Shown here: in pieces, positions 1-25,726 of the stretch | How the letters are laid out: every line of letters begins with the position of its first letter | How positions within the stretch are numbered: the first letter of the stretch is position 1 | Assembly (NCBI RefSeq): GCF_016433145.1 | Contig: NC_058132.1 | Location: forward strand, 276,298,939-276,362,938 | DNA length: 64,000 nt | DNA from: Gracilinanus agilis | Lineage: Eukaryota | Direction: 5' to 3' | Notes under the pieces: model-generated | Told to the model about the DNA's origin: nothing | Seen by the model: only the letters and a program-made list of their open reading frames with translations | Database searches by the model: none | Made by a program: the position numbers and the translations under genes

Positions 1-656
1 TGGTCCCCCAGCTCACCCTAGGCCAGGGTCTATGGAACCAGCAGGCAAAGGTAAAGTTTATGCAGTTTATTTGAGGGAAGCTAGATAAAGGATGGGTTAG
101 AGGATTTCTACACTTGAAACCTAAGGGCAAAACACAGGGGGCAGGGAAGGACTTAACTACTCTATCCTAATTGGCCTAAGCCAGGCAGGGCCCAAAGGAG
201 CAGTACTAGAGTCACAGGGAAGGCTCCTTTAAACCTGGTTTCAGCCAGGTTTGGTCAGCACAGCAAAAGGGCAATTGGGGTCTCACGGTAATACAAGGAT
301 GGACTCTGGATGCCAAGAGCCAACTCTGCCAGGTGATCCAAGGTACCCAGGCAGGGAGAGTGAGTTTGAAATGCTGTCCACCAGATCCCAAACCACTTCC
401 CCACTTGGTGCAGCTCTGCAGGTCTTGTCCACTTGCTGAAAGCCTTCACCTCTCAGGATATCCCAGGGAATCTGGATGCAGTTTTTCCCTAACTCTGAGA
501 TCTCCCAGGGTTAGCAACAGTTATGTCCAACCACTAATGGAATCTCTCTCAGAGCACAAGCCCACTTCCTGCTCCTTCATTCCATCTTGGAATCCTCCAG
601 CCCTTCCTGCTAGGTCCAACACTAATACTTAATTAATTGCTAAATAAACCCTCACA
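1..656 (-). mobile_element. LTR-like fragment (runs off the window start)
   Basis: Ends in ...CCCTCACA (TG start on the minus strand) and has LTR-like composition; abuts a second LTR-like segment. Family not identified. Confidence 0.45.
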
Positions 657-1233
657 ACAGTAAACAGTAAGAGGAAAGGAGATTCTGATCTTCAGGGCTG
701 GTTTACCCTGTCTCTTCAGGCTGGTGCCCCTAAAGACAGGTGATATAGTTCAAGCAGCCCCCCTTTAATCCTTTTGTTTGATGGCATGATCCACAGGAAT
801 CCAGGTAGAGAACACAGTTGGGAAAATCCTAGGAATAGAGGTCGTTTCTATCCTGAGAGGCAGAGAGAGCTCTCTCTAGTCCTGAGTCCAGGAAAGAGTA
901 TTCTCAGAGAGCAACTGTCACTCTCTCAAGTCTCTCCCCTCCCTCTTCCAACTGCCTTCATTGTCAATCAATCTTCTTTCCAACATTCCAAACCCTTACT
1001 GTGCAATTTTTCCACAGTATTGTCCCTTTTCATGCAATGAGCTAACCAGCTCAGTGACGTGAACTATTATACTTACCCTTAATTATCCTATGCTATTTGC
1101 TAATCTAAACCCCCCCAAATAATAATAATAAAAAAAAAACTTATCTACACTATGTTATCCTAGATTCCTAACTATCTACCCTAAGCTAAGACATTTTCTA
1201 GGAAAGGTTTGGGTTAGGAATTTGGGGTTTACA
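657..1233 (-). mobile_element. LTR-like segment
   Basis: Minus strand begins TGTAAACCCCAAATTCC at 1233. No PPT next to it, so it may be an insertion rather than the cognate 3' LTR of the neighbouring ERV. Confidence 0.45.
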
Positions 1234-2403
1234 AAATGAATACAGACAATAAGAACCATTATTGCAATGCAATAACACAACGAAAATCAACAGTCACTCC
1301 TATTTCTATCTTCTAGCTATGCAATCTTATACTAATACAACAATTTCCTATTTTATCACTATGCCAAACCAATTCAACTATAACTCTTCCAATAATACAA
1401 TTTCCAGTTAATGCTGTTACATATAATTTCTTTAAAGATAACTATTCTGTTTTCTAGTTTCAAATCCTATGCTTATCTTGTGTGCTAATCTAAACTAAAT
1501 ACATAGGAATTCCTAAACTATTTGCTGTTACTCTAAGTTATTCTAACTTCCCTATCTATTCTGTACATTCTTTGGCTTATATACTATGTACAAGGTATGA
1601 TACAGTATTCACAATCCTATAACTACCATATGCAAACCTATGTTACAAGTATTTATATATGTACAGTTTTTACATCAATTATATACAATGTATAACAATT
1701 ATGTTATTTCTTATACCCTGGTGTTAATCAAGCAGAAAATGTTTGTTTAAGACCTTATGCATTCTAACTACTTACACATTTTGCATTTCTTTGCAATCAT
1801 GGACTCTCCTTTATCTACACAAGGTCAACAAATAGTTTTGAATTGTGTATGTGTCTTTTTTTATGTACTGTTTGCATGAATACTTACACCTTCCTTCTTG
1901 ACTCCTCTTTCTTGTTGACTGATGGCTCTCTTCATTTCTTCCAAGCTATATGTATGTTGCATGTTTTCCCTAATATGTAAAGTTAATTTTTGTTTTTATG
2001 TTATTGCCACACTATCTTACGTAATTGTCCAGTTTATCACCTATCCACTTCTTATATATACAAATTTACAAAGTTTAGAGAGATTTTACTGTCTCTGTTA
2101 TCAGTTCAAAGTTTTTCTTCTGTCTTGTCTTGCTGCTTTTGTTTTTTTCTTGTCTTTTCCTCTGGGCTGGTTTTTCTTACTTTCTTGAGTTGTTTCATCC
2201 CCTTTGTGCATATTTTTATTTGTCATCTAGACTTGACTGTAGTCTGTACTTGACTGATGATCTTTTCTTTTTTGAAGTTCTTTCTGGCAGTATGACTTAT
2301 TAGGACTTGTTTCTACTGTTTCTAAATGCTGTGCATTCTCAGCCCTCTGTTTATCACTTTCAGTTTCACTTTGATTTTCATTTGTGGTGTAAGGCTTGTA
2401 AAG

Positions 2404-2496
2404 TTTTGTGTGAGAACAATGGATCCATTAATTCTTCTCTGCTACCTTGATTGCTATTGGAGTAGTTAATAAAACTTGAAATGGACCAACCCACTT
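2404..2496 (-). pseudogene. Integrase C-terminal (GPY/F) remnant
   Basis: Manual translation [30 protein letters not shown] fits the retroviral GPY/F module (W.GP[YF].VLLTTPTA.KV...WIH.SH.K). Confidence 0.8.
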
Positions 2497-2779
2497 TGTA
2501 GCTGACTTTTGCTAAAATGTATCTCTTTTTTTTTTTCTTCCACTTTGATTTGTACCATGTGTGAGCTTCCTGAAATTTTGACATTGGACCTTTTACAGAT
2601 GATAGATTTTAAGTTCTTAACAAATAACAACTTCTAAGAATCTTTGTAATATGTGGATATTTGTATCAATATCCACATGCAATTCTGTTGTTTCAGGAGG
2701 TATGCCAATCTCTCGTAGTGGGTTTATTAATTTAATCTTATTTATTAAGCCCATTCATCTTCTGTATTTGTATTCATGT

Positions 2780-3886
2780 CTTAACATTTGGCAGATAAGG
2801 AACCTTTAGCTTCCTGGTATATACCCTGCTGAGTAGTTACATAGTTTGATACCGGGTATGAGTACATCTGAAGAGCTTGCTTGGCTTGCTTCATGTGAAT
2901 TTGAGATATATTCCTATATTGGGGACTATACATTCCATTCTGGTCTGGTGTCAGTATTGGTATTGAAGGAGTTGAAGGAGTCCAGGAACCTGGAGAATTT
3001 ATGAATCTGTTTGATTTGTTTATATATAACAGAGCTTCTGAAGGATTGAACTCTGCAGCAATTTTCCCAAGATCCCAGTTTTTCTCTTCTTTTGCTATCC
3101 GAGAATTGTTGATTGCTCAGTTCTTGATTTGATACTTACTCTGCAATTCCTTGGCTTTTTGCATTGGAACTGCTTGATCATGAATATTTAAGGATGTTGG
3201 GATAATGTCTTTGTTGAGTTTATCTGTGCTATTGGTTTAAATTCTTCCACATTAGGATTTAATTTAGATTCCTGTAATATATCAGTGACATTTCCCTTTT
3301 TTGTATCATCAGTTTTGATTGTCTCTTCAGGAGGTCTGCTCATGTGAATCTCTGGAGATATTGTTTGTTTCAACCCATTGGTCTTTTCTACTATTGCTTT
3401 TGATGTTTACCCTCAAATTCAGTGAAACATATTGTTTTACATCATTAGAACTCCCTGCTATTTGTGATTCTATTATATTTATTTGTTGCTTTAGTTCTCT
3501 ATCTTTAGTTTGTGAATTGTAGTTTCTTTCCTCTAATAAGATGTTTTTGGTTTGTGTTGAGAATGCTTTTAAGTTATTATCACTAGAAACTGTTTCTTTG
3601 TCTTCATGGTTTGCTAAATCATTTTTTACTAGCAAGTTTATTGCATATGTACCCTTTATTGTTACAATATCTCCTTTCCCTTCCCTACTTGTGTCTTTAT
3701 CCATTGTTCCATAAACTTTATTCCACATTTCCTTAACATCTTTCGTTAATTGCATTTTGTCATTTCCTGTTCCTTAGTTTTGTGTTTTCTTTTTGTACCC
3801 ACTAATTCTATGTCACTGTATTTTTCTGCCAAGTAATTTTCCCCATTCCTTTTCCCATGTTTGCTTTCTATTGTTACTCCTTGCAT
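2780..3886 (-). pseudogene. Decayed orphan ORF ('ORF-X') with two PAM2-like motifs, in the position of pro/RT
   Basis: Successive long frames (from ATG 3886; track ORFs 3755-3327 and 3373-3188; then about 135 codons with a single TGA) joined by frameshifts. No DTG, YxDD or DDE motif found. SKLNPNVEEFKP at 3268-3233 and WDLGKIAAEFNP at 3077-3042. Confidence 0.45.
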
Positions 3887-3952
3887 CTGGCTTCATAATT
3901 GGCATTGTTTGGCAGCACCTGAGACTACCTGCAAATAATGTGGTTTCTCCCC

Positions 3953-4900
3953 CTATTGGATGAATTTCTCCATAGTTTCTAAATTTGAGGCTTGCAATGA
4001 ATTCTTGCAATTACAATTGCAACAGTGTGCATTTGTTTGTGTGTTGTTGTTGCTATACTTTGGGTTGCTTTTCCAAGGCCCCTTTTTGTTGTTTGCTTGG
4101 TCTAATTGTGCCTTTAAATTGCAGTCACGAACTATGTGTCCTAATTTGTTATATAGGAAACATCTTGGTACATTTCTCCTTTGATTGTTTTGTGTGTAAT
4201 TTCTTGTGGGTTTGTATGACTGCAGAGCAGCTAGATTTTTTACTTCCTCAATTTCTTTTTGTTTAATTGTGCTATTTGCCTCCTTGAGCTTGGTTTTAAG
4301 TTCTTATTATTATTATTATTTCATCTTTTTCATTTAAGATTTATTTATGACCTGTGAATATGTAAGTTGCAGTTTTTCTTAAATCTTCCAGACCTAGTGT
4401 TTCCCAGTCTGGGCAATGAAGCTTAAAATATGACCTAATAGGTGTGTTACATAAATTGTCTCCTTATATGTTGGAGATTTTGTTCATTTAAAATGTCAAA
4501 GCCAAGCACGTCCTCTGCTACTTCCATCACTCTATCTAGGAACTTTGATGGACGTTCCCCACTCTCCTGCCTCAACTTCTCAAATTGTCCCCAAATATCT
4601 GCTCTTTTTGAAAAACTTTTAATTGCCTCTAATAAATCCTCTCTGGCCTTTCGTAGATAATGTAAATTCACATTATTAGATAGCTCTAAGTCTGTTCCTT
4701 CCTGTGATCATGATGTTAAATTTGGGTTGTTTCTAGTTTCTTCAATGAATTGTTGCTTTTCCCTTTTTGAAAATAATTCTGAAAGAAGAATTTCAGTGTC
4801 CTGGAAATTTGGACCATGAAGCCTAATTGATCTTTTGAATTCTTTCTTTAATTCTGTGTACTTTTCCCTACAAAAAAACAGTGGCCCTCCCAGTTGGCTT
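3953..4900 (-). pseudogene. ERV gag remnant (capsid C-terminal part plus nucleocapsid)
   Basis: ORF 4671-4447 contains an MHR-like motif. Downstream frame reads CFLYNKLGHIVRDC (4162-4121; CCHC with second Cys changed to Tyr) and ends at TAG 3955-3953. Confidence 0.75.
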
Positions 4901-5379
4901 TAATCCAGAATTATAGATTTGTCATCTGTGAGTTTATGTCAACTTTATTTGAAGTTATTTATATTTTTAAAATCCATACTGGCTCTGGAGCTGGAGTTCC
5001 ATAAGTTTATAGCCTACTGGGCAAAGGCAGTACTTCCTTTAAGCTTCCATTTTCCTATAATAGCATAACTATATCCCTGAGAGCAACCTAGAGGAAGATT
5101 TCACATACAAGATTTAACTATACTTCTTATGGAATACACTTTTCCATTTGGGATTCCCGCCTACCCATTCTTATGGATTTCCTCTTTTCTTTCTAAAAAT
5201 TTTCCCCAATGACTTTTGCCTGTAAAAATACTTAACAAATCTTTATTGTTGATGTGGTGAAAAGGAGAGAGCATAGAAGCTAAATTTTTTCTTTGTCTTC
5301 ATATTTAGTCAGGCTATTTCTACTTTCTCCAATTGTCTTTTGATGCATATGGATTAAGGTCAGGAGATCAGATAAATGC

Positions 5380-5520
5380 TCAGAATGTGCTAGGTAGACA
5401 GAATTTCCTAAATTAAATTAAAAGACTAGATGAGAATGAATCTCTGGAGTTGGATGTCATTCTCCTAAGAGTTTTAAAGGAATAGAATGATGAGAATATA
5501 GAAACACTGGCTAAAATGAG
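5380..5520 (+). mobile_element. CR1/L3 LINE fragment
   Basis: Translates as NESLELDVILLRVLKE*NDENIETLA, resembling CR1 ORF2 NKSPGPDGIHPRVLKELADEIAEPLA. Confidence 0.45.
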
Positions 5521-16586: not shown

Positions 16587-16842
16587 TAGTGATGGGCAAC
16601 CTTTTGAGCTTGGCATGTTAAAATTTGCCAAAAAACCAAGCATAACTCCGGTGGTGTGTCACTTTGAGAAAAAAACCATAATTTCACAATATTTATAGTT
16701 AAAATAACAAAAATGTATAATTGTAATATATAACTGTATTTAATAAATCAAAAACTAATTATTTAACTTAACTGTTTAGTGACTTCTTTGTTCCTCTGTC
16801 AGTCAGTTTCTTTTGTTGGTCTTGATATTATTTAACTTGTGT
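16587..16842. mobile_element. hAT MITE, left part (split by the provirus)
   Basis: TIR TAGTGATGGGCAACCT preceded by TSD CCCTAAGC (16579-16586). Confidence 0.8.
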
Positions 16843-17190
16843 TGATAGGCCTGGGAAACCAACTGAGCCCCAAATAATAAGAGCTGACACAAACAGTAAT
16901 ATCTGCTAACAGTAACATCTGCTAAATGACAGGAAGACCCCCAACAAGTAACATCTGCTGAATGAATGACAGGAAGACCCTCAAACAATAGCATCTGCTG
17001 AATAAAAAAAGCAAACATCCAGCCCCCAAGTCCCTACTCAAACTATAAGCTGGCTAAAACCCCTCATTCAGGGTTCCATCTGCCTTGGAGGCTGTGGGGC
17101 CCAAGCTTGAGCTTGCAATAAAGGAATACCTCTTGCTTTTACACTATCTAGTGTGCCTCCTAATTTGGGAAATCAGAACTGGGCCGAACA
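16843..17190 (+). repeat. 5' LTR (348 bp)
   Basis: TGATAGG...GAACA; TATAAG 17044-17049; AATAAA 17117-17122. My manual alignment to the 3' LTR gives 16 substitutions and 3 small indels. Confidence 0.97.
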
Positions 17191-17192
17191 TT

Positions 17193-17210
17193 TGGGGGCT
17201 CGTCCGGGGT
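17193..17210 (+). other. Primer-binding site, tRNA-Pro
   Basis: TGGGGGCTCGTCCGGGGT, 17 of 18 identical to the MLV tRNA-Pro PBS TGGGGGCTCGTCCGGGAT. Confidence 0.95.
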
Positions 17211-17650
17211 TTCCTGACTGGATAGAGGTACTGGTTCAGAGGGCAAAAGGGTTAGGGAACATTTGTGTGATGTGTGGCTGATGGGGAACCAATCACGGGA
17301 TTAGGACATACGATTAAGTGGCCCAGCTAGCCCAGCTGGCTCTGGGAATTATACGGAGAGGGCCTATTGTTAAATCCAATCCCAAGTGATTCGTTTCTGC
17401 TTGTTTCTGAGTGTGGACCGCCTAATAAGCATTTCTCAGACTTCATGAGAAGTTGAGCTGGAACAGCTGGGAAGCGTTTGGTTATCAAGAGAAAGCAAAA
17501 GTGGATTGACCCTTTCAACCTTCCAAGCAGAAAAGACTCACTTTGAAGGGTTGGAAGCCCTTTGCCCAGATCCTGGGGACCTGGGACAGAGACTGGGTCT
17601 CTGCAGCAGAGGTTAGAGTCCTCTGAGGCCTTGGGGCCTGAAAGGTGGCA

Positions 17651-17884
17651 CTGGCAGATGTGCCAAGGGATTTCCAAGAGTAGAAATCAAGGTATTCATT
17701 CTTTGAGAACTTAGGGGGAGGGCGCGTTATATTGTCCTCTGGAAATGTTGTAGAGAGTAGTTTTAGTACCTTCATGTCGTTACTGTCCAGTCCTGTTTGC
17801 ATTGTTGTTTGTGCCTTTGTCTTATTGTTGGTATTGTTATTTTTATTAGGGCCCCTGATTTCTTGGCCTTTTGGTTCAGAGAAC
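17651..17884 (+). pseudogene. Glyco-Gag-like N-terminal leader (CUG start, signal-anchor), in frame with gag
   Basis: 78 codons in frame with gag ATG 17885: LADVPRDFQE*KSRYSFF...VCIVVCAFVLLLVLLFLLGPLISWPFGSEN-MGQ; one in-frame TAG at 17681. Confidence 0.7.
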
Positions 17885-19525
17885 ATGGGACAGACAGAGG
17901 CTACTCCACTGGCCCTTATTCTCTCCCACTTCCAAATTTTCAAGGCCCGCACTCAAAATCTCTCTTTGCAAGTCAAAAGAGGGAAGTTAGTGACCTTCTG
18001 TAACTTCGAGTGGCCCACTTTCAACCTCGGATGGCCTAAGGGCAGCACCCTCCACAGAGACATCATTTCCAAAGTCCAGGCCAAAATCCTTGACCCCAGT
18101 TTGGAGGGCCACCCTGAACAGATCCCCTACATTCTTACTTGGTAGGACCTGGTCTTGAATTCCCCCTTTTTAGCTACAGCCCTATGTTTTCTCAGAGCCA
18201 GAGAAACCCGTCCATACCTTAGCTCTCAAAGATAAAAGGGAAGGGATGGGGAAACCCCAGGGTCCCTCAGCCCCACTGGTCCTGCCTGATTCCAATAGCA
18301 CCCCTCCTGATTTACCTGTACCACCACCCCCATATGCTCCCTTGTACCCTCCCTTAGACCCAGATGGGGGACAGGTGGAAGCTGCTGAAGCCACCCCACC
18401 ACTGGCTCACCACACTTGTGGTTGGGGCCAGATCCCCTCACCCAAACCCTAACCCCCATCTTCCACCACGGCCCTTCCTGTCCATACTGTGGGCCCCCTT
18501 GTCCCTGGAGGACCTTGAGTCCACCAATATTGGCCTTTCTCCTCCAGTGACCTCTATAATTGGAAGACCTAGAATCTCTCTTTCTCTGACCAACCTCAGA
18601 AACTTATTGACCTCATAGAATCCATTCTCTTCACCCACAATCCCACCTGGGATGATTGCCAGCAGTTATTACAGGTTCTTTTTACGACTGAGGAGAGGGA
18701 ACAAATCCTCCTGGAAGCCAGAAAGAATGTCCCTGGTGTGGATGGTCATCCCACTGTTCAGCCCAATCTCATCAAAGATGCTTTCCCGCTGTCACATCCC
18801 GATTGGGACTTTGACCAACTCGAAGGTAGGGAGCATCTCTGTGTCTATCGCCAGACTCTAATAGCCTGTCTCCGAGCTGCAGCCCAAAACCCTACCAATT
18901 TGACCAAGGTAAATCTAGTCAGAGAGGGACCCCATGAAAGCCCAGCGGTATTCCTTGAGCGCCTCCAAGAGGCTTTTCAATTATATACCCCATGTACCCT
19001 CAGGCCAACATCAGTAAGGCGGCTATGCTGTTGGTATTAATCAACCAGGCATCCCCAGATATCAGGAAAAAAGTCCAAAAGGGGGACAACTTTGTCAACC
19101 AGTCTATTAGTGAACTCCTGAAAGTGGCCGAATGGGTATACAATACCCATGAGACCCCTGAAGAGAAAGCTGAGAGGTTGCATAAGGAAGATCAGGGGAG
19201 ACTTGACAGGCTGTGCCTTGATGACCACCAGCAGGATAGAAAATGTCAGAGGGAAATGGTTAGGATAATAGCAGCCAGCATTAAAGCCCCTCTAACCCCT
19301 GGACCCACCACGGGGCCAATCCCTCCTGTTGACAACAGAGGATGCCAACGGCCAGCCCTTACAGATAGACAGGCCTCCACTCAATGCTTCTATTGCAAAG
19401 AAGAGGGTCATTGAAAGCGCAACTGCCCCTATCTGCGTCCCCCGAGATGTCAGTTGGGGGATAGTAACCAGCCCCCTAGGAACCACCCTGTGAAGATGTT
19501 GTTGGTCATTGCTGATAGTGATTAA
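17885..19525 (+). pseudogene. gag: gag (MA, p12-like region, CA, NC), with stops and frameshifts
   Basis: MGQT start; EWPTFNLGWP; PSAP, PPPY and LYPPL; QYWPFSSSDLYNWK; [16 protein letters not shown]; CFYCKEEGH*KRNC; ends at TAA 19523-19525. Confidence 0.95.
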
Positions 19526-19582
19526 TGGGGACAGGACTTGCACCCCCTCCCCAAGTCCTGGGTAAAGGCAAAAATGGAGGGG
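19523..19582 (+). promoter_or_regulatory. Gag-Pol stop-codon readthrough signal (8-nt spacer plus H-type pseudoknot)
   Basis: Stop, spacer TGGGGACA, stem 1 GGACTTG/CAAGTCC, stem 2 CCCCTCC/GGAGGGG; pro is in frame with gag. Confidence 0.8.
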
Positions 19583-22500
19583 AAATCTGTGAACTTTCTG
19601 GTAGACCCAGGCACCGAGTTTTCTGTCCTGAAAGCACCTGTGGTAAAGATATCCAAAAAGGTAAGCTGGGTGCAAGGGGTGACAGGCACTCACCAATATA
19701 ACTGGACAACCACTCGGACAGTGAATTTAGGCAACCATCAAGTCACACACTCCTTCCTGGTTATCCCCGAGAGTCCAGCTCCTCTTCTCAACTGGGACCT
19801 ACTTCATAAAGTAGGGGCCCACATTTACTTCTAGGACAAGGGGATATGTGTAACAGACAAAGAAGGGCCCCCCCCCACAGGTCCTTACACTGTCCCTTCA
19901 GGATGTCTCCATACCCCTCCCCTTCCTGCCAGTATACCCAACCATGTGCACCCCTGGATGGACAGGGTTCCTGGGGTCTGGGCTAAAACTGTGGGGGTGG
20001 GACTTGCTGTCCACCAGCCTCCCATCATTGTAACCCTCAAGCCTGGCATCACCCCAGTCCACGTCAAGCAATACCCAATGTCTCTGGAGGCCTGAAGGGG
20101 TATAACTGTCCATATTGATAGACTAAAAACAGCTGGGATCTTAATCCCTTACCACTCTCCATGGAATACCCCACTCCTGCCAGTTCAGAAGCCTGAGGGT
20201 AAGGACTATAGGCCTGTCCAGGATTTATGAGAGGTCAACATCCAGGTGGAGGACATACACCCCACAGTCCCCAACCCATATATTCTCTTAAGCGCCTTAA
20301 CACAAGATCTTGTGTGGTACACTACTCTGGACTTGAAATATGCTTTCTTTATGCTTCTGCTTGCACTACTCAGCCAGCCCCTATTTGCTTTTGAATGGTA
20401 TGATGAAGATATCCAGGTTACTGCTCAGACCATGTGGACAAGGTTGCCACAAGGTTTCAAAAACATTCCAACCATTTTTAGCAAAGCTCTGGCCACAGCC
20501 TTGCGAGATTTTCATGTCAACCACCCCCGAGTTACGCTCCTATAGTATGTGGACAACCTCCACCTCGCCGCCTCGTCAGGAGCTGAGTGTGAGTCTGTCA
20601 CTCTATCTCTCCTGATCACCCTGAACGAGCTTGGATATAAGGTCAGTGGAAAAAAAGGCATCTACTGCTCAGCGGGAGGTCACATACTTGAGATATAAAT
20701 TCAAGGGAGGCCAACGGTGGCTCACCCAGGCCATGAAGGACACTATCCTCAATAACCCCAGCCCCAAAATCCCAGGCAGGTCCAAGAATTTCTGGGGTCT
20801 ATAGGGTACTGCAGGCTGTGGATCTCCAGGTTTGCAGAGCTGGCCCAACCTTTGTATAAGGGGTCCTGTGAATCTGCTAACTGGGAATGGACTTTTTTTT
20901 TTTAAACCCTTAACTTCTGTGTACTGGCTCATAGGTGGAAGAGTGGCAAGGGTGGACATTGGGGGTCAAGTGACTTGCACAGGGTCACACAGCTGGGAAT
21001 TGTCTCAGGAATGGACTCTTGAAATGAATTCTGCCTTTGAACTTCTTCATCAAGCCATGATCACAGCACCCACGCTTACCCTCCCCAACCCAGAAAAACC
21101 CTTTCAATTTTTCATTGAGGAAAAAGAGGGGATAGCAAAAGGGGTTTTGATACAGCGTTTTGGGCCATGGGATCGCCCAGTCACATATCTGTCAAAACAA
21201 CTGGATCCTGTTGCAGCAGGATGGCCACCTTGCCTGTGGATTATTGCTGCTACAACATTCCTGGTAAAAGATGCAGATAAGCTTACATATGGACAGATTC
21301 TGGTTATCACTACCTCACATGCTACTGAGTGCATCCTCCTACAGCCACCTAATCATTGGCTGTCTCACATGCTTCTAGCCCATTATCAAGCCCTGCTTTT
21401 GGATGCATCCCGCATTTCGTTCAAAGTCACCTCATCCCTTAACCCCACCACCCTGTTGCCCAACCCTTCCTTCCACTCCCTTGCATGACTGCCAAAAGAT
21501 CCTTGCCGAGGCAACCACTGCCCAACCAGACCTTAAAAACACTCCACTGACGAACAGCAATTAAGAGTGGTTCACGGATGGCAGCAGCTTTATTGAAGGG
21601 CACCGAACGGCAGGGGCAGCAGTTGTCTATGCCTCTGGATCCTCAGTCTGGGCTGCCTCACTCCCAGAAGGCACATCAGCTCAGAAGGCCGAGCTGATTG
21701 CTCTAACGGAAGCCTTGAGGAAGGGCCTAATGGTGTACACTGACAGCTGCTATGCCTTTGTCACCCTGCATGTGCATGCACCCATATACCGGGAATGCGG
21801 ATATCTCACGTCAGGTGGGAAGCCTATCAGGAACCTACCAGAAATACAGGAGCTCCTATTGGTGGCAAAGAAGCCTAAAGCCATGGCTGTAGTCCACACA
21901 CCTGGCCACCAAAAGGGAGAATCCCTAGAAGCCCGTGGAAACCGGGCTGTGGACCAAGTGGCTCGTGAGGCTGCAGTATTTGCACCTTCCTTAATCCTTC
22001 CAGCCATCATACCACCACCACCTGAAGGAGAGCCTCAATACACCAAAGAAGATTGTACCTAGGTTGAGAAGCACCAAGGATGCCCTGATGGACACTGGTA
22101 TCGGGATCAGGAAGGGCATCTTCTGCTGCTCCAAACCCTAGGCTAACTTCTTTCCACCCACCTACATCACCTGTCACATTTAGGAGAAAAGAAACTGACC
22201 CAACTACTGGATAAAGGGAAGCTTCGCTTCAACGGCCATAGTAGTTTTCTTCATCAGTTAGTGACCACATGCCAAGCCTGCCAACTCATGAAAGTGGCTA
22301 AGCCGGGCAATCATCATGGATATAGGGTTAGGGGTCAGTGGCTCTGCCAAAACTGGGAAGTAGACTTTACTGAAATCAAGCCAGGTAAATTTGGCTTCAA
22401 ATATCTCCTCATCCTAGTGCACACCTTCTCAGGCTGGCCAGAAGCATTCCCTACCAAATCTGAAACAGCCCTAGTAGTAGCCAAGAAACTCCTTGAGGAA

Positions 22501-23249
22501 ATCATCCCTAAGTTTGGATTTCCTGATATGTTGGGGTCTGACAATGGACCAGCCTTTGTAAGCAAGGTGTCCAGAGGGGTTGCCATGGCTTTGGGGATTA
22601 ATTGGAAGCTATACTGTGAGTATAACTTCCAAAGTTCCAGCCAAGTAGAGAGGATGAACAGGACAATCAAGGAGACCTTATCTAAATTGGTCCAAGAGAC
22701 TGGCATAGAATGGGTGACCCTTCTTCCTTTGGCCTTGCTCCATGCCCGGAACACCCCTGGCCCACATTCTCTTACCCCTTACGAAATCCTATATGGATCC
22801 CTTCCTACTATCCTCCCTTCCATTCCCTGAACCATTGAGGGCACCGATACTCCAGCTGAATTGAGGCCCATGTTGTTGGAGACCTTTGGCCTCAAGTCAA
22901 GGAGGCTTTCCAACTGGAGCCTCACCCCCCGCATGAGTACAATCTGGGAGATTGGTTTTGGGTAAGGAGACACCATAAGGGTTCCCTACAGCCCCAATAG
23001 AAGGGTCCTCATGTTGTTTTGTTCGTTACCCCTTCTGCCCTTAAGGTCGATGGCATCAGACCTTGGGTCCACCACTCCCATGTCTGAAAAGCAGAACCTC
23101 CCAATCTACAGCCTTCGGACCAGTGGCGAGTCACACGTCATTCAACAAACCCCCTGAAGCTTCATTTGACCCGACATTATGAACCCCCTTCTGTTCCTGC
23201 TACCTTTCCTCCAACTGATGATACCAAGCAACTGTTATCAGCCACATGA
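19526..23249 (+). pseudogene. pol: pro-pol (protease, RT, RNase H, integrase), defective
   Basis: FLVDPG (DTG changed to DPG); WNTPLLPV; LPQGFKN; *YVDN (YVDD changed); TDGSSF, AQKAEL and YTDS; integrase VDFT, SDNG and VERMN; many stops and frameshifts. Confidence 0.95.
20894..21007 (-). mobile_element. 5'-truncated SINE1_Mdo-type SINE inserted in pol
   Basis: 10-bp TSD GGAATGGACT at 20884-20893 and 21008-21017. Confidence 0.93.
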
Positions 23250-25075
23250 TAGCTCCTTCTCTAATCCGCATTTACCCTGGCAATGGACTCTCAGCAGTTG
23301 GGAAAGTTCCACTACTCTCTGGACTGTTATCTCCTCTGGAGCTCCATTTTTTAAGGTCTCCCCCTGTGACCTCCTCCCAATCTTGGGGACTTGTCTTGAG
23401 AACACCCCTGGAAACCCATGCTGGCTCCCAACTTATGATCGGTTTTATGCATGTCCTTCCTCCATCCTGGGGAAATCATACTGCAATAGCCCAGGCCATT
23501 ACTACTGTGGTCACTGGGACTGTGCGACCCTAACAACTGAAGAATGTTCCCTTAACAGACCAGATCCCTTTTTCTCCTTTTCATGTGGCCCCCTGGTTGC
23601 AAAACTCAACAGGGGATGAGGGATGCCGTAGTAGAAGGGGACCGGGGGCCGTGGACCAGCTGCTTTTATCTCAACCTTATGGTCCAAGCCCCACAGGATA
23701 TGGGTTGGATCTTGGGTCGTACATGGGGACTAAGGGCATATATAAATGGCGTTGATCCAGGGGGGCTTTTCCTTATAAAGAAGGAGGCTGTTCTCCCCTC
23801 TACTCCCATAGGCTCCAGTAAAGCTTTAAATCCCCAGCAGACCCCTCCAGAAACCGTCATACCCACCCCCTGCCCCAATCAAGCTCCAGACACCATCATA
23901 CCCACCCCACTACCTACCCCAAACCTTAACTCCTCTGTTACACTTACACCCTCGACCCCAGTCCTGATCTAGGACCCATACCCCCTATGGCCCATGTTGC
24001 AAGCCTCCTACCTTTCACTGAACCAATCCTTCCCTAATCTTACTGAGAGCTGCTGGCTCTGCCTAGATGCCAACCCCTCATACTATGATGCTATAGCACT
24101 GAATACTTCCTACAATACCTCCAACGAGGTGAACTCCCCCCCATCCCCCCGAGTGTGACTGGAATGACAGGAAGAAGGGCCTCACTTTGCAATCCATCTT
24201 AGGGTCTGTCCACTGTATAGGGAACATCTCCAAACCCCTAGCCCAGCTATGTGATAGAATCTCAAGTGCAGACAATTTCTATATTCCCCCTAAAGGAGCT
24301 CCACCACTGGACTAACACCCTGTGTAGCCCAGACCACCCTGTCCTCCACGAATGAAATGTGTCTCCTTATCACAATCCTACCCAGCATCCTCTTCCACCC
24401 TGAGGAGGACCTTTACTGCTACTGGGAAGCTTGCTCCCCAGCATCCATCAGGACAAAGCAGGAACCTATCACTATCATCACCCTCACAACTATCTTTGGT
24501 CTAGCGGGTGTAGGAACAGGTATAGCCTCCCTGACGCTTCATCATCAAAGTCTTTCAGCCCTCAGGGTTGTAGTAAATGAGGACTTAGCCAGAATAGAAA
24601 CCTCCATCACCCACCTTGAAAAATCCCTTACCTCCCTGTCTGAAGTAGCTCTTCAGAATTGCAAGGGCCTGGACCTCCTTTTTCTCCAACAAGAAGGCCT
24701 CTGTACAGCACTTGTAGAGAAATGCTGCTTCCATTCTGATCACACAGGGGTCGTGAGGGAGTCCACAACCAAACTCAGAGAAAGCCTCACCAGTCAACAA
24801 CGGGAGCAAGAGTCTCAGGAGAGGTGGTTCGAGCACATCTTCTACCAATCTCCTTGGCTCACTACCTTCATCTCCACCCTATTAGGCCCCCTCCTCATCT
24901 TTCTTCTTCTTCTAACCCTCAGCCCTTGTATTATCAATTGTTTAGTGGCTTTTTGTGAAAGATCATATTAGCGCTGTCCTGAAACAGCAATATCAAACCC
25001 CTCCCGACCCCCCAGAAACCCCACATGATGATGCTAACACATCTGTTTGAGGATGATTCCTCAAAGATTCATTAA
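23179..25075 (+). pseudogene. env: env (gamma-type SU and TM), defective
   Basis: Signal peptide; NPH; FYACP; TWGLR..GVDPG; proline-rich region; CWLC (24051-24062); RTKQ (degenerate furin site); ISD LQNCKGLDLLFLQQEGLC; CX6CC; transmembrane helix. Confidence 0.93.
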
Positions 25076-25087
25076 AGAAGTGGGGAA
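25074..25087 (+). other. Polypurine tract
   Basis: AAAGAAGTGGGGAA immediately before the 3' LTR. Confidence 0.9.
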
Positions 25088-25435
25088 TGATAGGCCTGGG
25101 AAGCTAACTGAGCCCCAAATAATAAGAGCTGACACAAACAGTAATATCTGCTAACAGTAACATCTGCTAAATGACAGGAAGATCCCCAACCAGTAGCATC
25201 TGCGGAATGAATGACAGGAAGACCCTCAAACAATAGCATCTGCTGAATAAAAAAGCAAACATCCAGCCCCCAAGTCCCTACTCAAACTATGTAAGCTGGC
25301 TAAACCCTTCATTCAGGGTTCCATTTGCCTTGGAGGCTGTGGGACCCAAGCTCAAGCTTGCAATAAAGGAGTACCTCTTGCTTTTACATTATCTGGTGTG
25401 CCTCCTAATTTGGGAAATCAGAACCGGGCTGAACA
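25088..25435 (+). repeat. 3' LTR (348 bp)
   Basis: About 95% identical to the 5' LTR; TATA position reads TATGTAAG. Confidence 0.97.
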
Positions 25436-25726
25436 GTGTTGGGTGCCATGAACTAAGATTAGTGAGAGGGAGGGGAAAATCTTTAACTAACCTGCCCTTT
25501 TAGTGACTTTTTTGTTGCTGAATTTCATTTGCTAATGAAAATTCATTTAGCCACTAAGTCTTCATTTGAAGGTTGGTATTTTGTACACTTCAAGCCCAAG
25601 GAAGTGCTACTAACTTCATCTGTCATGGTGTTTCTTTTGTTGGTTTTGATATTATTTAATGCATGCGACCGCGTGTCATCGAAAATGGCTACCTGTGACA
25701 TGTGTGTCATAGGTTTATCATTAGGG
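25436..25726. mobile_element. hAT MITE, right part
   Basis: Degenerate right TIR (ataggtttatcatta) followed by TSD CCCTAAGC (25727-25734). Confidence 0.75.

Follow-up and report, generated by a model that had tools for sequence, protein, structure and literature searches.

The endogenous retrovirus (ERV) copy described here, from the genome of Gracilinanus agilis, is a dead, pol-deleted copy of a family classed by sequence comparison as a class I ERV, and the gap between its gag remnant and its integrase tail is mostly the family's long pre-protease Pol leader, not a new gene in pol's place. It is regarded as virtually certain that this leader has the anatomy given in Table 1 and that two pieces of it were captured from the spliced mRNA of the host gene ATXN2L. 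The leader contains a PAM2-type motif, and it is judged somewhat probable that the retained motif let a readthrough Gag-Pol bind the MLLE domain of PABPC1 sitting on the poly(A) tail of the element's RNA. The window, that is, the whole stretch of DNA that was analysed, is 64,000 nucleotides long.

Table 1. Parts of the ERV copy, with their positions in the window
Feature	Position	Strand	Evidence or remark
Gag remnant (CA with MHR-like stretch, NC), with stops and frameshifts	4846-3893	minus	79-95% to pol-bearing relatives, in 150-nt bins
Premature TAG in gag, a lesion of this copy	3955-3953	minus	sense codon in 28/30 scorable rows
Gag stop of the family (TGA), in the frame of the Pol leader; probable site of readthrough	3895-3893	minus	stop in 36/37 scorable rows
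Virus-derived part of pre-protease Pol leader	3892-3471	minus	matches pol-bearing relatives; frameshift at about 3770
Capture 1, spliced ATXN2L piece, host exons A/B/C	3470-3160	minus	directly significant only over 3362-3234
PAM2-type motif SKLNPNVEEFKP, Val at position 7 instead of Ala	3268-3233	minus	aligns to host PAM2
Viral spacer, ending in W(D/E)LG.I motif	3159-3054	minus	same motif precedes protease in pol-bearing copies; in-frame stop at about 3119
Capture 2, spliced ATXN2L piece, exons B/C/D/E, host reading frame	3053-2778	minus	76% over 279 nt
Duplicated viral pre-protease motif, 3' of capture 2	2777-2659	minus	also in pol-bearing copies, as far as the pol-deletion junction at 2659
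Junction piece	2658-2550	minus	found mainly in pol-less copies; match to RT not above shuffles
Integrase C-terminal remnant	2549-2227	minus	83% to L033 from 2549
A-rich 3' region, env not detected, purine tract at end	2226-1017	minus	85-90% to pol-bearing relatives
3' LTR, first part	1016-659	minus	73-80% to LTRs upstream of gag in relatives

The copy is cut off at 4846, where the matches of all relatives begin, and is without 5' gag and 5' LTR; a genome DNA search with window 4850-5450 gave no family matches. Adjoining this truncation, window 4847-5450 holds a gag-start-like stretch with one weak match elsewhere in the genome. The 3' LTR continues past the left edge of the window, at about -155 and about -650, after nested insertions. 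One LTR-like element of about 810 nt is nested in it (window 658-1, minus strand, on to about -154), with related copies inside L045 and L065.

Much of the preliminary description of this locus was borne out. A gag remnant (CA-NC) is present on the minus strand, the integrase tail at 2496 reads KWVGPFQV and matches a family integrase tail (E 5e-11), the gap between them measures about 1.46 kb, and the long open frames in it, on an A-rich strand, have 148, 72 and 111 codons when counted from stop to stop. The pol core is indeed gone: no protease, RT, RNase H or integrase core was found in window 1-5000, even in a search that used pol pieces of this family (best E 0.12 and 0.80). An apparent RT remnant at 2655-2599 (E 0.8) was rejected, its score being not above shuffles. 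One relative's copy of the junction piece matches an integrase tail (score 70 versus a shuffle maximum of 54), and the integrase tail of a relative matches Pfam MLVIN_C (E 6e-9). The other provirus has its pol at about 19.5-23.1 kb, within window 16800-25600 (plus strand); it is a distinct, gamma-like element that retains remnants of gag, pro-pol and env, its paired LTR pieces agree at 93-100%, and it was used as query and outgroup only.

The frames in the gap had been taken as unrelated to pol, and this did not hold. A DNA search with window 2780-3900 gave at least 45 matches, and the best 19 elements were read as 10-kb stretches: ten run into protease, with the counterpart of window 3892-3061 directly preceding it, five are pol-less like the window copy, two join the integrase tail without capture 2 and two are otherwise broken. 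Moreover, natural open frames lead from the leader into protease in L035 (214 codons) and, through the insert in the host frame, in L128, and L070/L105 have a natural open frame of 245 codons through both inserts. In the young family, the TGA is followed by 404-405 open codons up to the protease anchor in 5 of 13 copies, and the leader frame reaches the Pfam protease at residue 424, with RT beyond. Protein searches found homologues of the young leader neither among 1,428 candidates nor among 1.84 billion representatives, and none of 126 candidates scored in a protein search with the window's 111-codon frame. A match of the leader to Ribosomal L9_N (E 0.0011, below the cut-off) was weak in one of four relatives and was set aside as chance.

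Gag and pol of the family are in one frame with a single stop between them. The preliminary description placed the gag stop at TAG 3955-3953; the codon is there, but the family's stop is the TGA 60 nucleotides further on (Table 1). In the gag-stop alignment, which has 41 rows with one element entered twice (as L019 and L159), the stops at this position are TGA in 34 rows and TAA in two, and the hexamer TGAAGC occurs in 20. The ATG at 3886, noted earlier as the first in the frame, is kept in only 12 of 31 scorable rows. Because the frame is shared, the TGA conserved and the ATG not conserved, we infer readthrough of the gag-stop TGA. As the Pol frame follows the gag stop, the Gag fusion by readthrough suggested earlier is plausible, at TGA 3895 and not at TAG 3955.

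The RT of relative L163 matches MLV-type chains with E 3e-71 versus 2e-37 for foamy chains (the window copy itself is without RT), and this MLV-type RT together with the one-frame gag-pol would place the family in class I (gamma/epsilon-like). Like class I readthrough ERVs, it combines an MLV-type RT and integrase tail with gag and pol in one frame and UGA between them; UGA stands at the gag-pol junction also in the epsilon-related SSSV, ZFERV and RMEV (PMC13517186, in part). Unlike in MoMLV and WDSV, which have the stop at the NC-protease border according to the available text of the same paper, about 280-420 codons lie between the stop and protease here, and readthrough is a prediction here. 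No TM match was obtained in any locus with one TM query, and no env-sized frame lies 3' of integrase in seven stretches.

With window 2700-3090 as genome query, an intron-containing locus (L064), the host ATXN2L gene, was found, and five spliced host exons were then used as reference; exon C is 100% identical to the Sarcophilus ataxin-2-like protein, and by its ATXN2L protein the genome is that of a marsupial. The match of capture 2 to these exons (E 6e-60) runs across three exon junctions, and the introns of 354, 154 and 176 nt are absent from it. Within capture 1, window 3362-3234 is 64% identical to the spliced exons over 129 nt (E 1e-12), with one exon junction, and includes the PAM2 motif, so that four exon junctions without introns are present in the window copy in all. 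The ends of capture 1 (3470 and 3160) were inferred from less diverged relatives and the 3' boundary of the virus-derived part before it (3471) via L045; in L111, L123, L124 and L125, capture 1 is 79-85% identical to host. Both pieces keep the reading frame of the host, and this frame coincides with that of Pol.

The direction of capture is from host to virus, because the host gene has introns (GT-AG) and orthologues (in mammals and a turtle), and because insert-free relatives of the element exist. A free-standing processed ATXN2L pseudogene was ruled out by the viral leader sequence that borders the fragments on both sides. The captured pieces were amplified with the element, with at least 45, at least 21, at least 34 and at least 22 matches in genome DNA searches. 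The earlier idea of a gene captured or evolved in the pol slot is right as to the capture of host coding sequence and wrong as to a new gene replacing pol, since the captures sit in an N-terminal Pol extension of pol-bearing elements. Some 4.9 kb of sequence upstream of host ATXN2L occurs in two copies next to an N gap (G000:C1, about 132.811-132.825 Mb), possibly an assembly artefact.

The steps of the history are spread over different copies. Capture 1 alone is present in the pol-bearing elements L123, L125, L128 and L134, and both captures are present in nine pol-bearing elements, in which capture 2 stands before protease (L105-L110, L112, L118 and L142). In ten loci with capture 1 and without capture 2, the captured piece is 64-85% identical to host, and nine elements, L045 among them, have the start of capture 1 at host position 112-116. 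L136 and L137 are without insert, and 28-53 nt of their sequence is found on both sides of the insert in L111, L125, L126 and L128; such duplicated flanks are what template switching would leave. These two elements may predate the capture; alternatively, the flanking repeat may have led to loss of the insert. The pre-protease motif duplicated 3' of capture 2 matches insert-free L137 in its L108 copy (E 1e-5), and L106, L108, L120 and L142 match the window to 2659 and diverge beyond. In a tree of the 82-nt overlap, each capture has a clade of its own and the two meet at the host (92/80; 96% of bootstrap trees), so there were two captures, and one capture followed by viral duplication was ruled out.

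In the protease-RT tree, the branches follow one another like the rungs of a ladder, with insert-free and early copies at one end and the young family at the other. With a distant outgroup the root falls at the young end, which is taken as long-branch attraction, and the family is rooted by host identity instead, because host identity and the end-branch lengths (about 0.1-0.2 versus 0.002-0.05) point the other way. Identity to host falls from 85% in early captures to unrecognisable in the young family, whose leader has no significant direct match to host and is linked to it via intermediate copies only (E 2e-6 to 0.04). A neutral rate of 2-4e-9 per year would put the age of the early copies at tens of millions of years; in the LTR comparison meant for dating, fragments alone could be paired and no date resulted. 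In L106 and L108, an extra copy of the capture 1 end lies before protease (window 3206-3134 matches twice), and the leader thus grew by repeated duplication. In a late lineage (L147, L149, L150, L155 and L167), most of capture 2 is lost and the first motif is found in three of the five. The 5' junction of capture 2 (window 3080-3042, minus strand; L032, L044, L045 and L048) forms a second, chimeric motif, such as IKWQAAEFNP, which has Ala7 and decays in later lineages.

Pol was deleted after the captures had entered pol-bearing elements. On either side of 3046-2600 the window copy is 76-95% identical to pol-bearing relatives, with which it shares gag and LTR; within 3046-2600, where these relatives have pol, it is 75-87% identical to older pol-less elements. 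For this copy of mosaic build, the best reading is that it belongs to a recombinant, non-autonomous subfamily. The 2659 junction and the layout are common to six other copies, so a layout unique to this locus is ruled out and the non-autonomous multi-copy lineage of the preliminary description is upheld. Pol-less copies would have spread in trans on helper Pol.

The PAM2-like segment had also been noticed earlier; in the window it scores Pfam E 0.031, below the cut-off, and the host PAM2 exon scores 5.6e-8. Positions 3, 4, 5, 9, 10 and 12 of SKLNPNVEEFKP match the canonical motif, which has a hydrophobic residue at 3, Pro or Val at 5, Glu at 9, Phe at 10 and Pro at 12. With the motif as anchor, a PAM2 row was obtained for 63 of 74 loci (11 being without one); of the contact residues, L3 is kept in 58 of the 63 rows, P5 in 56, E9 in 54, F10 in 58 and P12 in 54. 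Six lineages retain these residues while the codons and the flanking sequence change: six contact positions have a between-lineage identity of 0.70 and 20 other positions one of 0.22, a contrast that may be inflated because the rows are anchored on the motif, and only 5 of 230,230 six-column sets are as conserved. At L3 the residue identity is 0.85 versus a codon identity of 0.13, all six Leu codons being in use, and F10, P5, P12 and E9 show synonymous codon switches between lineages. The free positions 6 and 11 vary (identity 0.13 and 0.12). Position 7 is Val in 39 of the 63 rows, the window copy and most older lineages included, and Ala in 14, of which 11 are young; 11 of 12 young copies have Ala7, and young copies have Asp at position 4. 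In PAM2, Ala7 has been called invariant and positions 6 and 11 free (PMC2854688, in part), and a bulkier residue at position 7 sterically highly unfavourable (PMC7356810, in part).

Outside the motif, the leader appears only weakly constrained. For gag and protease, dN/dS between lineages is 0.07-0.16; it is 0.82-1.0 for the viral leader, with about 1 between lineages, and 0.46-0.82 for capture 2, where most intervals span 1; within pol-less copies, capture 2 gives 0.82 (CI 0.53-1.29), that is, no clear protein constraint. With an arbitrary frame as control, dN/dS was 0.53-0.86, which shows that the method is noisy.

The mechanism proposed would begin with template switching onto co-packaged ATXN2L mRNA, suggested because short viral duplications flank both inserts. 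Readthrough of the UGA would yield Gag-Pol, in which the PAM2 motif, about 210 codons downstream of the UGA, would bind PABPC1 on the same RNA; the case for MLLE binding by the motif in life is evenly balanced. The most likely benefit would be cis-preference and RNA protection in an env-less element. Possibly, competition with eRF3 for PABP would in addition weaken termination at the UGA and raise readthrough; MoMLV RT binds eRF1, a parallel to such feedback. PAM2-MLLE contact links eRF3 to PABPC1 (PMC13517186, in part). The fullest version of this reading is tentative: an env-less lineage took a PABP-docking peptide, kept it likely for tens of millions of years while the remainder of the captured sequence was erased, and re-tuned it to the PAM2 consensus in its youngest and largest family, where it may recruit PABPC1 and feed back on readthrough. 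The genome also has an intronless PABPC-like gene with a 945-codon open frame (L176, G000:C7, about 11.607 Mb) and 22 MLLE matches.

Against PABPC1 docking stands Val7 in 39 of 63 rows where Ala7 is called invariant, as does Asp4 in young copies, and little PABPC1 effect is expected where a long coding region follows the stop (PMC13517186, in part). The motif could have served another protein-level job, as a protease cleavage or spacing site or as a ligand of a different MLLE protein, which is held to be unlikely. UBR5 is such another MLLE protein, and Val7, which most older lineages have, speaks against canonical PABPC1 binding; a hydrophobic, Pro-containing linker site in a polyprotein could also be a cleavage site. 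However, the kept positions (3, 5, 9, 10 and 12) and the free ones (6 and 11) follow the MLLE footprint, 53 of 63 rows have Ala or Val at position 7, and Ala occurs there in the youngest family. Less probable again is that the captures were tolerated passengers in a flexible linker, in which the open frame alone mattered and the motif pattern is an ascertainment effect. The dN/dS near 1 over most of the leader, the whole lineages without capture 2 (some copies lacking more of the leader) and the anchoring of the rows on the motif would all agree with passengers, but the residues stay through codon changes while neighbouring columns of the same alignments decay.

The model of the preliminary description, in which a non-autonomous lineage uses Gag, leader and capture 2 as a new functional fusion protein for its spread, is the least probable of these. 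It can draw on the cassette 3060-2550, which moved from an older pol-less lineage onto the window backbone and is in six other copies, on the second AAEFNP-type motif made by the 5' junction of capture 2 in several copies, and on the two indels common to three or more copies in capture 1 or 2, both of which keep the frame. Yet pol-bearing elements have capture 2 too, its dN/dS among pol-less copies is 0.82, pol is also deleted in elements that are without capture 2 (L038, L046 and L047), and the second motif is not conserved.

Capture of host mRNA by ERVs is already known, as in CrocERV29 (KIT-ligand) and CrocERV31 (nectin3), and also in RSV src and the WEHV cyclins (PMC4299795, in part). As in these cases, spliced host mRNA entered a retroviral genome and was amplified, and the capture cost no viral gene, which is true of CrocERV29 as well. 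Their captures, however, are whole extra ORFs between pol and env or in place of env in the available text of that paper, whereas here they are in-frame fragments inside Gag-Pol before protease, and one mRNA was taken twice and worn down to a 12-residue motif. In the literature searched (Repbase, Dfam, subscription papers and supplements being outside its scope), no report of ATXN2L or PAM2 in retroviral Pol was found, and the available text of a marsupial ERV survey has no such insert (PMC11334065).

PAM2 proteins include ataxin-2, ATXN2L, eRF3, PAIP2, TOB and PAN3 (PMC2854688, in part). The viral motif descends directly from the ATXN2L PAM2, but has Val7, and the LSm and LsmAD parts were not taken. 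LINE-1 ORF2p needs PABPC1 contact, and its PIE is, like the motif here, an N-terminal PABPC1 contact on a retroelement polymerase with proposed cis-preference; unlike the host-derived, putative MLLE-binding motif here, the PIE is LINE-1's own and predicted to bind RRM1 (PMC7617806, in part). Similarly, the yeast ataxin-2-family protein Pbp1 promotes the LTR element Ty1, but Pbp1 is a host factor and the motif here is element-encoded (PMC6218562, in part).

Viral motif mimics are usually too diverged to tell theft from convergent evolution. Here, the series is present in one genome: elements without the insert, captures that are 85% identical to host and retain exon junctions, the second capture, and a young family in which the motif alone is recognisable. 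It follows that a long unannotated gag-protease stretch can hide host sequence. The series also points to a testable role of PABPC1 in LTR-retroelement replication, parallel to that in LINE-1. If the fullest reading given above is true, viral motif mimicry would here have been followed completely from its origin.
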